In this document: positions 2,713 through 63,746 of the stretch, piece by piece
Layout: every line of letters starts with the position of its first letter
Numbering within the stretch: position 1 is the stretch's first letter
DNA from: a virus
Lineage: Duplodnaviria; Caudoviricetes
Direction: 5' to 3' (one strand)
Length of the DNA: 64,000 nucleotides
IMG/VR virus record: IMGVR_UViG_3300031994_000058
Coordinates: 1-64,000 of that record
Made by a program: the position numbers and the translations under genes
The notes under the pieces: model-generated
What the model was told of the DNA's origin: nothing
The model's database searches: none
Seen by the model: only the letters and a program-made list of their open reading frames with translations

Positions 2713-3291
2713 TTAATCGATGACGCCAAGCCGAATATTCTCGCTTAGCCACCACATAGCTTGTCTCCAAAGGTCCACGGATCGCATATCGGCATCATCA
2801 GGACGCCTATCTACCTGAAAAATGCCTCCCTCACCGTCAGAATCGTACTCTCTATACACAATTTGCTCCACTTTTTGCTCACAAAACAGCTCCCAATCAC
2901 GATTCCAGACCCCATCAGTCGCTCGACTAAGCCCAATATTGTCGATAAATATCCAAAACCAATCGAGATGACGGTCTCCATATCGCTCCTCCCACATCAC
3001 TTTATCGTCGATTTTAACAGCTAGAGCCATCAAAACCTCCAAAAAGCTCACTCCGTCGGTCCTTCCACACGATTTCACAACGCCAGAGTGGGTGTCAACG
3101 AACGTTTTTCTCAAATCAAGTCCCTCGACAACCCTTGAAGAGTCATCCGGACCGTTTTCCAACCCGACAAACCCGAGTGTAAAGAGCTTCCAGAGCAGTT
3201 TTCTATAATATAGGCCTCTAAACTCCGCCACAAGCCACTCGAAATATAATAAAACGTCATGATCAAAGCCATAATCCATATAATCTTCCAA
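2713..3291 (-). CDS. Conserved phage hypothetical protein
   Basis: 192-aa ORF with strong RBS; YFEWL...DGLDLR...SFLEVLMALA...WFW motif set typical of a core phage family; function unknown. Confidence 0.6.
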   Translation of the reverse strand: MEDYMDYGFDHDVLLYFEWLVAEFRGLYYRKLLWKLFTLGFVGLENGPDDSSRVVEGLDLRKTFVDTHSGVVKSCGRTDGVSFLEVLMALAVKIDDKVMWEERYGDRHLDWFWIFIDNIGLSRATDGVWNRDWELFCEQKVEQIVYREYDSDGEGGIFQVDRRPDDADMRSVDLWRQAMWWLSENIRLGVID

Positions 3292-3328
3292 TAAAATAAC
3301 CTCCTTAGAGTAGAAAAAAAATAAAGGA

Positions 3329-3346
3329 GGAGCCTGTTAAGACTCC
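3329..3346 (-). terminator. Intrinsic terminator family GGAGTC/GGGCTC-TTAA(A)CA-GGCTCC/GGGCCC + U tract (7 copies)
   Basis: Copies at about 3329, 5616, 14482, 15159, 28934, 40501, 41297; conserved loop; followed on the minus strand by T-rich runs. Confidence 0.8.
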
Positions 3347-3626
3347 TCATAGTACCTCGCCGCCATCTTGGAAACCCAAGACAGTGCCTCATCGAGGCTG
3401 TTGAATATCTTCTCTTTACCGCTCCAAACGTCTGGCTTTGTCTTCAAACGCCGGCAAATCTTAGCAATATATCCAATATCAACAGCCTTTTCAATTCCTG
3501 CCTTGAAATCATAAGCATCAAGATTCATAATAGTTTTCATAAAATCTCCTCCTTTAATATCCAGGGATACAAGCCATTTGCTTCATTCCCTTCTATTAAG
3601 AGGACTGAAAATAATGCGAATACACC

Positions 3627-3751
3627 CCTCCAGAAGCCCTCAGAATGCCCTGTATGACGCTTAGGAGGTACACCAGCAAACAACCCGCCCAACGTGCTGG
3701 AACGCCATACAGAGCCTTCTGAGAGCTCCTAGAGGCATTGTAGAAGCCCTC
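3627..3751 (-). ncRNA. Long-hairpin structured RNA (35-bp stem, inner hairpin, alternative 5' hairpin)
   Basis: 3735-3701 pairs with 3627-3661 at 34/35 positions including 6 G.U pairs that only work on the minus strand; inner stem CCAGCA/TGCTGG; no ORF in 3541-3761. Confidence 0.75.
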
Positions 3752-3761
3752 TCATTAGTAT

Positions 3762-4148
3762 TTAGTCATCAATCAGACCAGATTTCGTGTGTTCATTCAA
3801 ATCCATAATGGCCTGGGCTTCCTTGAGTCTCGGATCGACGCTCATCATAGACATCACAGCATCATGAATCGCATCACCGTCAACCTCCACAACAGGCCCT
3901 TCTTCAACGGGCTCCATAATCTCTCCAGTACCATCTGACTCCTTTTCAGCATTAAGGGTGTCATCGAACTCCACCGCCTCGATAAGCCAATACGCATCGC
4001 CGAACGCTTTCTTAGCGTCGAATTCGCCACAAACTTCATAAACTCGCTTCACGCCACTAATCGCTGACTTGAATTTGAAGTGGTTCTTAAGAAGGTAGTT
4101 CTCAAGTGCCATGATGCCCTGCTCGTGGTTCAAAATCGTAATAATCAT
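3762..4148 (-). CDS. Hypothetical protein
   Basis: 128-aa acidic ORF with RBS. Confidence 0.6.
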   Translation of the reverse strand: MIITILNHEQGIMALENYLLKNHFKFKSAISGVKRVYEVCGEFDAKKAFGDAYWLIEAVEFDDTLNAEKESDGTGEIMEPVEEGPVVEVDGDAIHDAVMSMMSVDPRLKEAQAIMDLNEHTKSGLIDD

Positions 4149-4166
4149 ATTATTCCTCCTAAAAGT

Positions 4167-4916
4167 TCATAAATTATCAAGTTCTTCGTCGTTTTCGCCG
4201 AATTCATAACGATGCCATACACCATCTCTCGGAGGGCCTGCCGTATGTCTGTGTTCATTCATACCGCTACCTATCGATTTAAACAGCATATACACCTCTT
4301 TCAAATCATCGTTTTGAATATAAAGGGGATCCGGTGCTTCTTCGACCAGGACATCCATCATACCTTTGCCAAGATAAACCCAAGCATCTGATTGCTCAGC
4401 GAAGAGTGTGCCATCAACGTTATATACGTCTCTAGTCTCGTCATCGAAATATAATTCATATCCTCGATAATCGAAGACTGATTCGCACATTTGATAATAC
4501 TCGTCTTCCGAAATATAATACGGATGGTCGACATATGGTCTGGTCTTGATGCCTCTAGCATCCTTATCCGCCTTTACTTCCCGTTCTTTCTCCTTTGCAT
4601 CACGATATCGAGTGAGTGTGATACCGGAATAAGTCGCTTCACTCTTATACTGTTCTCGATATGCATCGATATAAGCCTGACAAACGGCCTCGTCTTCTGG
4701 AGAAATATTATTCTTGTCCTTGCTCGTATCTTCGTCGACGTCCTTTTTCTCATCCTCGAAAAGATCCTCGCCTCGAATATACGCTGCTTTGATTTCCTCC
4801 ACCTCATCGTAGTATTTGTCCTCCCAGCGCTCTTTTTGAATTTTATACGCAGCGACACCACCGACAATTGCTCCGACAACAAGCCCTATCAAACCTTTAA
4901 TCGTCCCGCTATTCAT
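4167..4916 (-). CDS. Membrane-anchored acidic protein, paralog of 4934..5716
   Basis: N-terminal hydrophobic helix GLIGLVVGAIVGGVAAY; C-terminal YYISEDEYY...PLYIQNDDLKEVY domain. Confidence 0.7.
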   Translation of the reverse strand: MNSGTIKGLIGLVVGAIVGGVAAYKIQKERWEDKYYDEVEEIKAAYIRGEDLFEDEKKDVDEDTSKDKNNISPEDEAVCQAYIDAYREQYKSEATYSGITLTRYRDAKEKEREVKADKDARGIKTRPYVDHPYYISEDEYYQMCESVFDYRGYELYFDDETRDVYNVDGTLFAEQSDAWVYLGKGMMDVLVEEAPDPLYIQNDDLKEVYMLFKSIGSGMNEHRHTAGPPRDGVWHRYEFGENDEELDNL

Positions 4917-5571: not shown

Positions 5572-6975
5572 TCACTATTTCCTCCTTGTGATTTAAAATA
5601 TAAAAGAAAAAAGGAGGAGCCTTGTTAAGACTCCTTATCCTCGCTTTCTCTGATTTCGAACAACGCCGTAGTAAACCCCTTAGCATTCTCGAGCTGATCC
5701 TCGTCGAAGTATGCAAGTCCAGTTGTTCTCCATCGAAGGAACCCCTTCTTCTGAATTACCACCATGTACTTGTACTTCGGATCATTCTCAAGCTCCATGA
5801 GTTTAACTCTATGTCGCTCATTCTCACAGATTTTAATAATATTGTTCATAACAAACCCTCCTTTTCTATAAAGAGAGCTGCATGAATTGCGAAAAGAAAA
5901 AGGGAAGGGCCTCATGCCCCTCTCCTTTCTACAACCACTTGATAGCGATCATATGCAAGATTGTGCTGGATCCAGGTGTCATAATTTTTGTCATCGTACT
6001 TCTTGCAGCATTCCTCGAAATACTTATGCGCATCTTCTGCGTCTATAAAGTATTTCTGAATAATGCAATGCTTAAGCCCGAAAACTTTTTTCACCTTATT
6101 CATCCAATTCATTTCATTCTTAAACATAAAATCAACCTCCTTAAAGTTGTGTGTATTCTTTCTATTAAGGAGATTGAAAATGTTGCGAGGCTCTACAAAC
6201 ATCATTCTCCGGGCTTCTTAAGGCTTAGTCGGCCTTTATCGTGCAGCTCCCAGAGAAGATTCTCAAGAGCCTCACGACCTTTCTCATCTGTATAAATGTT
6301 GCGCTCACAAGCTTTGCAATATCTCTGCCCAACATTGATGAGTTTCCCGCAACCTTTACAGATGTTATACTCAAGTTCCATCATTTCCATAAGATTCCTC
6401 CTTATCATCGCCAAGCAAAATATAATATTTCGCCAAAGCAAATCCGCCCCAGCATCCGCCAAAAAGCAAAGTGAGGCCGGCGAATATTGCACAACACCAC
6501 AGCCATACGATTTTTTCGGCGTCTCCATCTATATACACAAGCTTACCATACAAAAAACTGATAAGCGTCAAAAATTCACCGCAACTAGTCAAGAAACCAG
6601 CCTTAAATATCAAGTTGTTAATTTTCTCTATAACCGTCATGTTGTCCTCCTATGAAAAAGAAAGGGAAGAGGCACAACGCCTCACTCCCATGGATCCTCA
6701 CCAAATATGCCGTAGAAGGTATATTCAATGATGTAAAACAAGATTGCCACGACTGCAATAAACAGCATAATGCCTGCTGTCATATCAAATGCGCTAGTCT
6801 CAGCCAATCGCCCCGCCAAAGCACAAGCGATGAATCCGATACTACCGATTTTGATTCCTGTATTTGCTGCTTTATGCAGTCGCTTCATTATTCCATACAT
6901 TGTTTTCATAATATCATCCTCCTAAATATAATTTTGGTTTTCACCTATAAAGGGAGATGATTATTATGCGAGGGT

Positions 6976-33900: not shown

Positions 33901-33965
33901 TGCGAGTCGTCACTCTCATAGAGAGGGGCGTGTGGTATCGTGTCTGAAATCAGACTTTTTGCGAG
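33901..33965. repeat. About 60-bp double-hairpin element, copy 1 of 4 (others 38272-38335, 40107-40170, deleted copy 42023-42053)
   Basis: GTCGTCACTCTCATAGAGAGGGGCGTGT(G/A)GTATCGTGTCTG(A/G)AATCAGACYTTTTGCGA near-identical; always directly upstream of a TCGCA promoter motif. Confidence 0.9.
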
Positions 33966-62698: not shown

Positions 62699-63746
62699 AT
62701 GAAATTCCTCCTTTTATTATAGCTTTTAAAAGCCTTATAAATTTTAGTTTTAGATATCGATTTTTGAGTTCTCTTGTGGTGGTGATAGTTAATAATGACA
62801 ATCGTGAAAGCATTCCGGACGCCATCTTAGAGGTCAGAACTAAGTTATTACGGATCCTGGAATGAAGAGATCTGTACTTTCTTTTAAGACGTAATAGAAC
62901 CGGTTTTCGAAGCATAAATCTGGTCCCTTGATACCGGTAACCAAGAGCCGATACGGGACGAGATGATACTTTGTACACTTGCCAGTTAGGTTTTAACCGT
63001 AAACAAATGCCGTTTAAGTAATCGGATATGGCCCGAACTACTTTATGGAGCATTCTCTTATTAGAATGAAAAAGTGTTAAATTGTCCATATAACGAAGAT
63101 AATGCGGTACATGAAGAACCTCACGAATGTAATGATCGAGAGGTTGAAGAAGGACATTCGCGAACCATTGACTATGGAATGCGCCTATCATTACACCATC
63201 CTGTATTGATATTTTTATCAATTTCATCACTCGCTCATCATTTATAAGACTTCGAAATCGACTTTCTATAATTGATGGTAAAATGGACTCATAAAAATGA
63301 TGAATGTCGAGTTCTGCACAATATTTGGTATGCTTTGGATCATTTTTCAGCCATTTACGAATACCAGTTTGTCCGCGTTTTAGACCTCGACCTTTAATCG
63401 AACCGCAGCACCAATAGTCCATTCCTCGCATCATTACGGGCATCAAAGCCTGTACAAGCATATGGTGGATGTACTGGTCGGGCCATAATTTAGGCTCTGT
63501 TATAGTTCGAATCTTCTTGGCGTTGTGGTCATATCGCCTAGTGACTTTTGGTCTACTTGGCTTAAATCCCTTTATTACGATGTTTCGTAACTCTCTAACA
63601 CGCTCTTCTAATGTAGCTTCTATCCATATCACGGTTCGATTAAGACCCTTACGTGTGCGCCTGTGGGATTTGTTTACGTCTCTAATCGCTTGTTTAATGT
63701 TGTCATCGCTAATTAATATGGGAAAGAGATTCTTTACTCTCTTCAT
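62673..63746 (-). CDS. DGR-type reverse transcriptase
   Basis: 357 aa; LDIHHFYESI; GVMIGAFHSQWFAN (DGR-like motif 4); YLRYMDNL; LGY; no maturase/endonuclease domain; TR directly upstream. Confidence 0.9.
   Translation of the reverse strand: MKRVKNLFPILISDDNIKQAIRDVNKSHRRTRKGLNRTVIWIEATLEERVRELRNIVIKGFKPSRPKVTRRYDHNAKKIRTITEPKLWPDQYIHHMLVQALMPVMMRGMDYWCCGSIKGRGLKRGQTGIRKWLKNDPKHTKYCAELDIHHFYESILPSIIESRFRSLINDERVMKLIKISIQDGVMIGAFHSQWFANVLLQPLDHYIREVLHVPHYLRYMDNLTLFHSNKRMLHKVVRAISDYLNGICLRLKPNWQVYKVSSRPVSALGYRYQGTRFMLRKPVLLRLKRKYRSLHSRIRNNLVLTSKMASGMLSRLSLLTITTTRELKNRYLKLKFIRLLKAIIKGGISYEDFKRHH

Follow-up and report, generated by a model that had tools for sequence, protein, structure and literature searches.

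We asked what a long, almost perfect inverted repeat between two phage genes does, and whether it acts as RNA or as DNA. The window, that is the whole stretch of DNA that was analysed, covers the opening 64 kb of a virus record in IMG/VR that is 86,687 bp long and rated complete by CheckV. Sheep and cattle gut DNA runs contain this uncultured phage or close relatives. Its closest protein matches are found in Clostridioides and Bacillus phages (~45-48% identity), and a blastn search of the INPHARED phages gave no nucleotide match. The gene content includes an RNA ligase and phrog_1735.

According to the ORF list, all genes around the repeat lie on the minus strand. In the direction of reading they are a 128-aa gene (4148..3762, stop codon TAA at 3764-3762), a 67-aa gene (3540..3337, Shine-Dalgarno (SD) sequence at 3553-3548, with a classic terminator at 3348..3327) and a 192-aa gene (3291..2713, phrog_4678). 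The repeat is contained in the 221-nt spacer between the first two. The 128-aa protein belongs to no Pfam or PHROG family; it has nine homologues with 72-89% identity, all from gut or rumen metagenomes, and a profile search found no more distant ones. Since, in addition, the Atlas search returned no more than a weak resemblance of ferredoxin-like type and the AF2 model, with a pLDDT of 40, cannot be used, no RNA-binding partner can be proposed.

An earlier note on this DNA had described the repeat as a G.U-rich RNA hairpin, and the pairing that it gave for the two arms is correct: on the minus strand, the 5' arm (3735..3701) forms standard pairs with the 3' arm (3661..3627) at 34 of 35 positions, and six of these pairs are G.U. 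The single mismatch, G.A at 3716/3646, divides this lower stem into 19 bp and 15 bp. The helix is longer than that note gave. A basal extension pairs 3742-3739 with 3624-3621, and a 6-bp upper stem (CCAGCA / UGCUGG) pairs 3700-3695 with 3678-3673, closing a 16-nt G/U-rich apical loop (3694-3679; stem and loop together 3700..3673). The whole helix including the basal extension is a 122-nt element (3742..3621). On the 3' side there is an 11-nt loop, UGUACCUCCUA (3672..3662), which is unpaired in every fold and has the core CCUCCU at 3668-3663. Potential long-range closing stems between the segment after the stop codon and the downstream start region were considered as well and set aside, being AU/GU-rich and not robust.

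The 221-nt spacer folds with -95.1 kcal/mol on the minus strand (z -6.1, none of 200 shuffles as good) and with -65.8 kcal/mol on the plus strand. No other 140-nt window on either strand of the 64 kb folds as stably as the hairpin; the remaining very stable ones fall in a cluster of repeats near the left end or within small ORFs. A covariance model of the hairpin (R1, 3752-3619) scores 165 bits on the minus strand versus 50 on the plus strand. Both this model and BLAST find a single copy in the 86.7-kb genome.

We wanted to know whether the strand preference can be taken as a sign of selection on RNA, as the earlier note had argued. On the plus strand the same arms form only 28 of 35 pairs and no G.U pair. 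All wobbles are G.U in the sense strand and none is A.C, which a palindrome maintained in double-stranded DNA would give with a probability of about 0.5^6 = 0.016; moreover, in relatives G-C or A-U takes the place of G.U, and U-A that of one C-G in the upper stem. This supports selection on the sense-strand RNA, and we conclude that the hairpin is a real, conserved and strand-specific RNA structure.

The same observations bear on the idea that the element works as DNA, either as a single-strand hairpin in replication or recombination, or as a joint of cassette exchange that is kept by recombination and not by an RNA function. A 67-aa gene cassette has been gained or lost at a junction just downstream, a G.T wobble is tolerated in DNA too, and hairpin-plus-promoter joints mediate shuffling in T4-type phages (PMC2839356). 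Like those stem-loops (PeSLs), the hairpin adjoins a phage promoter at a place where relatives differ by one cassette; PeSLs, however, are short, multi-copy terminators, whereas the hairpin is 122 nt long and lacks a U-run (PMC2839356). A shuffling cassette of the PeSL type was rejected, as such cassettes come in many copies and this hairpin in one. Given this single copy, the 6:0 asymmetry of G.T over A.C, which argues against a double-strand palindrome, the coincidence of the favoured strand with the transcribed one, and the lack of adjacent replication or recombinase genes, we hold a DNA-level element to be very improbable.

Next, we looked for the hairpin in other genomes. Thirteen further copies were obtained: from contigs that encode homologues of the 128-aa protein, from one JGI hit (L020, added by a pattern scan of JGI metagenomes) and from two contigs reached via the 192-aa protein. 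In every locus that extends far enough upstream, the hairpin follows the 128-aa gene. Exact-pattern scans of IMG/VR gave chance 17-mers or nothing, and two patterns had no match in the GTDB genomes. Searches for related loci with the 128-aa and 67-aa proteins found nothing, and the search with the 192-aa protein returned only phages with 31% identity, which do not have the hairpin.

The block 3780-3621 is 95-100% identical to the window in these relatives, compared with 85-93% in flanking DNA and 65-80% in the middle part of the 128-aa gene. An initial alignment of 11 sequences has 4 differences among some 820 stem cells (~0.5%), versus ~10% in flanking DNA; the variation of the apical loop is close to background. 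In a model-guided alignment of all 14 sequences, 99.0% of the cells are paired and 36 of 45 pairs are invariant. Four pairs vary on one side in a compatible manner (G.U to G-C twice, U.G to U-A twice, G-C to G.U and U-A to U.G once each), and there is one two-sided compensatory change, the C-G to U-A in the upper stem of L022. The covariation that one would look for in a functional RNA is thus present as compatible changes and one compensatory change; it is not significant alone (48 of 500 shuffles reach the score), because the clade is too shallow.

L022 is the most divergent copy, about 85% identical within the element, and it is informative in several respects. The G.A mismatch is closed as U-A, the upper stem has two additional pairs, and the apical loop differs. 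In the side loop (the 11-nt loop and base 3661) it has UCUCCUCCUAC where the window has UGUACCUCCUAA, and all four changes lie outside CCUCCUA. The chance that four random changes in 12 positions all miss this 7-nt core is 5/495, or about 0.01.

Could the conservation be that of a coding sequence, or could the palindrome be a product of chance? There are open frames through the hairpin, namely a 25-codon ORF from the AUG at 3739 and a 58-codon open frame in L022. On the other hand, L022 has lost the start codon, L005 and L007 have lost the stop, each of the five apical-loop substitutions is non-synonymous in the long open frame, and the conservation has no 3-nt periodicity. Against chance stand the z values of -6 to -8 relative to shuffles across the hairpin folds. 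Either origin appears extremely unlikely.

How the hairpin may be transcribed can be read from its surroundings. It lies on the sense strand between co-oriented genes, 26 nt past the stop codon of the 128-aa gene. One base 3' of the helix end at 3621 begins a promoter-like motif, TCGCA-N16-TAATAG (3619..3593, minus strand), which would serve the 67-aa gene; the general form TCGCA-N16-TWAT, which here occupies 3619..3595, is found 32 times in the window against an expectation of 6.5, and 27 of these matches are on the minus strand. A motif scan found neither a phage-type nor a sigma-70-type promoter between 3762 and 3742. We therefore infer that the hairpin is transcribed as the tail of a three-gene unit from a promoter near 5892. 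Among 24 RNA runs, one sheep-gut metatranscriptome contained the phage, with contigs covering 3356-3514 and from 5554 on and none on the hairpin; contigs cannot show transcript ends.

The earlier note had proposed a trans-acting regulator. As a small-RNA gene standing by itself we had to reject the hairpin: it has neither a promoter nor a terminator of its own and sits in the mRNA as a 3' UTR or intercistronic spacer. A scan for terminators found none after 3621, where UUCGCAUUAU follows the stem, and none of the relatives has a U-tract adjoining the stem. The other cassettes of this phage carry short GC stems with U-runs upstream of their promoters, and this hairpin is the sole long one.

The relatives add an argument against a terminator. 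The window and seven relatives have the 67-aa cassette, which consists of the -10 box, leader, gene and terminator (3348-3327); four other relatives (L005, L006, L020 and L022) lack it. In these four the -10 part of the promoter is absent, and the 192-aa gene, with AAGGAGG and a UUG start, follows about 28 nt past the hairpin without a promoter motif. It must therefore be transcribed through the hairpin, which makes a strong terminator unlikely.

These data also allow us to judge whether the hairpin terminates, pauses or attenuates transcription of the upstream unit, with the upstream arm copy described below as an anti-terminator. Its position directly before a promoter is where other cassettes carry terminators, and mutually exclusive folds do exist. 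An intrinsic (Rho-independent) terminator was rejected, as this calls for a GC-rich stem followed by a U-tract and no relative has a U-tract by the stem. Furthermore, the next gene depends on read-through in four relatives, and the would-be anti-terminator fold is weaker than the long hairpin by about 50 kcal/mol. We consider this role quite improbable.

Several minor observations concern the promoter and the cassette. The cassette junction, about 12 nt past the helix, is a site of gene cassette gain and loss. Copies of TCGCA-N16-TWAT on the minus strand span 1631-42027, and many have a CU-rich stretch just before the -10 box. An element of about 60 nt (TCGCAAAAGGTCTGATTYCAGACACGATAC...GAGAGTGACG) recurs directly upstream of three promoter copies on the minus strand (~33905-33970, 38276-38340 and 40111-40175), giving tandem TCGCA boxes. 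An Rfam match to SAM-III at 3538-3615 (18 bits versus a threshold of 45) spans the promoter and is probably spurious.

Folds of read-through RNA predict a pairing between the SD region of the 67-aa gene, UAUUAAAGGAGGAG, and the sequence GUCCUCUUAAUAG of the promoter spacer and -10 region (3546-3606, minus strand). Transcripts that initiate at the promoter would lack this masking arm. In the T4 genes e, soc and I-TevI the SD sequence is likewise masked in read-through transcripts, and the likeness is that the 67-aa SD is predicted to be masked only in RNA that comes from upstream.

A second hairpin, mutually exclusive with the first, had also been described. Folds of the nascent transcript do contain it: 3751-3741 pairs with 3731-3721 over 11 bp (-15.1 kcal/mol). 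It rests on an exact 10-nt direct repeat (D7, 3751..3742 = 3641..3632); its 5' arm, GAGGGCUUCUA at 3751..3741, is an upstream copy of part of the 3' arm. This arm and the competing hairpin are conserved among the relatives. Within the arm, GGGCUUCU is kept in 14 of 14 sequences, L022 included, and the homology between L022 and the window starts exactly at GGGCUUCU, the bases 5' of it being unrelated.

According to folds of the growing transcript, the 11-bp hairpin would form first and be displaced when about the last 15 nt of the 3' arm emerge; the full element reaches -69 kcal/mol after the 3' arm is complete. A switch had been among the suggestions; these folds do not predict one at equilibrium, the alternative fold being some 50 kcal/mol weaker than the long hairpin. 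In the models it is instead a transient or post-cleavage state, and upstream RNA without the 3' arm would adopt the 11-bp fold.

What, then, does the hairpin do? The explanation that we favour, although we would put it at slightly less than an even chance, is that it is an RNase III-type processing and 3'-end-stabilising element that acts in cis in an early mRNA. The three-gene unit whose last member is the 128-aa gene would carry the element at its 3' end. The host's RNase III, which is specific for double strands, would cut the 34-bp near-perfect duplex and separate the upstream from the downstream message. The upstream product, we infer, would then refold by means of the conserved copy GAGGGCUUCUA into the 11-bp hairpin, which would cap its 3' end against exonucleases. 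The excised top would be a stem-loop of 60-75 nt that displays CCUCCU, and this loop may pair with a Shine-Dalgarno sequence, either before cutting or once released.

Several lines of evidence favour the processing element. An ideal RNase III substrate has about 22 bp, or two helical turns, and cutting is modulated by mismatches and internal loops (PMC3867540); the RNase III of Bacillus cuts paired positions of intramolecular duplexes and leaves 2-nt overhangs (PMC11780869). With 34 of 35 positions paired, plus the basal extension and the upper stem, the duplex exceeds this length, and it is for this reason that RNase III is suggested. With the 3' arm removed, the conserved upstream arm copy would form a hairpin of -15 kcal/mol. 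The place 26 nt past a stop codon, with no promoter in between, and the sense-strand-specific pairing, with 99% of cells paired and stems that diverge so much less than their flanks, argue in the same direction, and the missing U-tract together with the read-through in four relatives indicates that this is not a terminator by design. RNase III is assumed to be supplied by the host; a Pfam search of the phage genome detected no RNase III, nor a Sigma70_r2 domain or a T7-type RNA polymerase.

We then compared the hairpin with known systems. In T7 (R0.3-R1.3) and SP82, intercistronic hairpins of the early mRNA are RNase III sites, and those of SP82 are cut by Bacillus RNase III. The hairpin of lambda sib is complete only in read-through RNA, and its cleavage by RNase III controls the fate of the upstream message. 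With the same reserve as for the processing element itself, just short of an even chance, we suggest that our hairpin works most like these T7-type sites and lambda sib. As in T7 and SP82, the hairpin stands in the sense strand between early genes and has a long duplex broken by an asymmetric internal loop, and the expected outcome would be the same, namely separated messages and a protective 3' hairpin on the upstream one.

There are also clear differences. The duplex has 34 bp as compared to roughly 10+10 bp in T7 and SP82, there is one such hairpin per genome and not one per gene boundary, and there is no sequence similarity to those sites. In addition, the proposed 3' cap would form by refolding with a duplicated arm, and the internal loop carries a conserved anti-SD motif; cleavage is here only proposed. 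With sib it shares the position downstream of a gene and a form that is complete in read-through RNA; sib, however, overlaps a terminator, resulting in two transcript classes, whereas no terminator is evident here.

At the level of sequence, no catalogued family was found. In Rfam 15, an E-value search of 3000-4400 gave only generic long-hairpin miRNA models at the site (15-23 bits versus thresholds of 64-100), gathering mode gave nothing at the hairpin region in a search of the whole window, and a tRNA/tmRNA scan found nothing at the site. An RT-associated RNA such as a retron msr-msd was rejected as well, as the only reverse transcriptase (62934-63479), which has its own RT-18 RNA (63758-63838), lies 59 kb away. 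The hairpin thus represents an uncatalogued sequence family, most likely one of a known functional kind.

A plain processing site leaves the invariance of CCUCCUA unexplained, and we therefore asked what the anti-SD loop may do. The earlier note had pointed out that the loop is complementary to AGGAGG as the usual ribosome-binding site (RBS), and this site is indeed common: there are 77 sense-strand copies in the first 42 kb, where 15 would be expected. The same strand has five copies of CCUCCU, in two promoter spacers, two terminator stems and the hairpin loop, and a single copy of ACCUCCU, that in the hairpin loop. One copy of ACCUCCU is about what base composition predicts, and the case for a function of the loop thus rests on its conservation and not on its presence.

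CCUCCUA is invariant in all 14 sequences. Of the anti-SD motif as it had been proposed, the CCUCCU core stands, even in the divergent L022, and the leading A of ACCUCCU does not, since L022 has not kept it; base 3661, which adjoins the loop, varies between A, C and U. As the changes in L022 spare the core and its homology begins at GGGCUUCU, both features that the earlier note had stressed are under constraint. To judge from these sequences, this applies to the anti-SD core and the competing upstream arm, and not to the leading A. The loop may exert its effect in cis or after release as part of a fragment.

A first possibility is translational control in cis. In read-through transcripts, the CCUCCU of the loop would pair with the AGGAGG of the following cistron, and translation of this cistron would then depend on cleavage of the hairpin, melting by ribosomes or the alternative fold. 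The invariant core speaks for it, and so does the arrangement in the four relatives, where the SD of the 192-aa gene (AAGGAGGU, with the UUG start) lies about 28 nt past the hairpin and forms 7 bp with ACCUCCU. In addition, the 128-aa stop is 10 nt before the alternative arm, and terminating ribosomes could bias the fold. The complementarity is nevertheless confined to the generic SD, with 6 bp for the 67-aa gene and 7 bp for the 192-aa gene and none beyond it, and the variable base 3661 shows no covariation with any RBS checked. Furthermore, the window type has a promoter between the hairpin and the gene and an SD that a local stem already masks in read-through RNA, and pairing of an internal loop requires a pseudoknot, which is outside the scoring used here. 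Overall, we regard such control as unlikely.

A second possibility is a small RNA or decoy in trans, with the hairpin or its excised top binding SD regions of host or phage, or mimicking the 16S 3' end. Firmicute small RNAs such as RNAIII of S. aureus target SD regions via C-rich loops; RNAIII and RsaE/RoxS are independent genes with a promoter and a terminator, have extended complementarity to their targets, and RNase III is often involved. These precedents and the conserved C-rich loop on a very stable stem, unpaired and able to pair with G-rich SD regions, speak for the idea, and by inspection the upper stem-loop, 3-4 nt and ACCUCCU resemble 16S helix 45 and its tail. Unlike those small RNAs, the phage element is part of an mRNA and lacks both a promoter and a terminator of its own, and its conserved complementarity is limited to the generic SD. 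A seed of 6-7 nt matches at least 77 phage RBSs and most host ones, so that its specificity would be nil. The best extended matches of the loop in the window (9 bp at 27899-27888 and 8 bp at 4162-4151) are no more than chance predicts, and there is no Rfam SSU or small-RNA match; an action in trans thus seems improbable to us.

A variant would make the hairpin the precursor of an abundant phage small RNA that copies the 16S 3' end, with a helix-45-like stem-loop and ACCUCCU, and serves as an SD sponge or, in the manner of a decoy, diverts a host factor or defence nuclease specific for the anti-SD tail of the ribosome. We consider this highly unlikely. Pairing of the loop with the RBS of the 128-aa gene itself (UUAGGAGG, 4162-4155, 8 bp) was also rejected, the match being at chance level and showing no covariation with base 3661.

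To our knowledge, there is hardly any work on post-transcriptional control in phages of gut Firmicutes. Here, the hairpin offers a single, very stable, clade-conserved RNA element that is amenable to synthesis, with two unusual conserved features: a duplicated arm permitting post-cleavage refolding, and an invariant anti-SD loop. Processing and refolding, if true, would amount to a new route from an RNase III site to a protective 3' end. A loop acting on ribosome-binding sites would provide the phage with a means of tuning translation, and a hairpin that copies the 16S tail would be a phage-encoded mimic of the mRNA-binding site of the ribosome. Should neither processing nor an action on ribosome-binding sites hold, the element is an uncatalogued structured RNA motif suitable for Rfam.

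Finally, some observations were made elsewhere in the window. Very long hairpins are also predicted on the minus strand at 39678-39508, 37509-37231 and 40041-39760 (-57 to -76 kcal/mol); these hairpins, at 39.6, 37.4 and 40.0 kb, lie inside small ORFs and are not of the same kind as the hairpin described here. One of these ORFs encodes a hydrophobic 56-aa peptide. A tRNA-like gene at 34941-35014 (minus strand) scores 50.9 bits with the Rfam tRNA model; ARAGORN leaves its type undetermined and gives it a four-base anticodon (gaaa).

Positions 16-292, at the record's left end, contain a cluster of direct and inverted TTAAGCGTGTAAGTA-like 22-30-mers; candidate roles are those of an origin, an operator array and a terminal repeat region. 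The reverse transcriptase ORF mentioned above (RVT_1, 35.7 bits) is found among structural genes, with the RT-18 RNA (59 bits in Rfam) just upstream, and this locus (62934-63838, minus strand) may be a diversity-generating or other retroelement.
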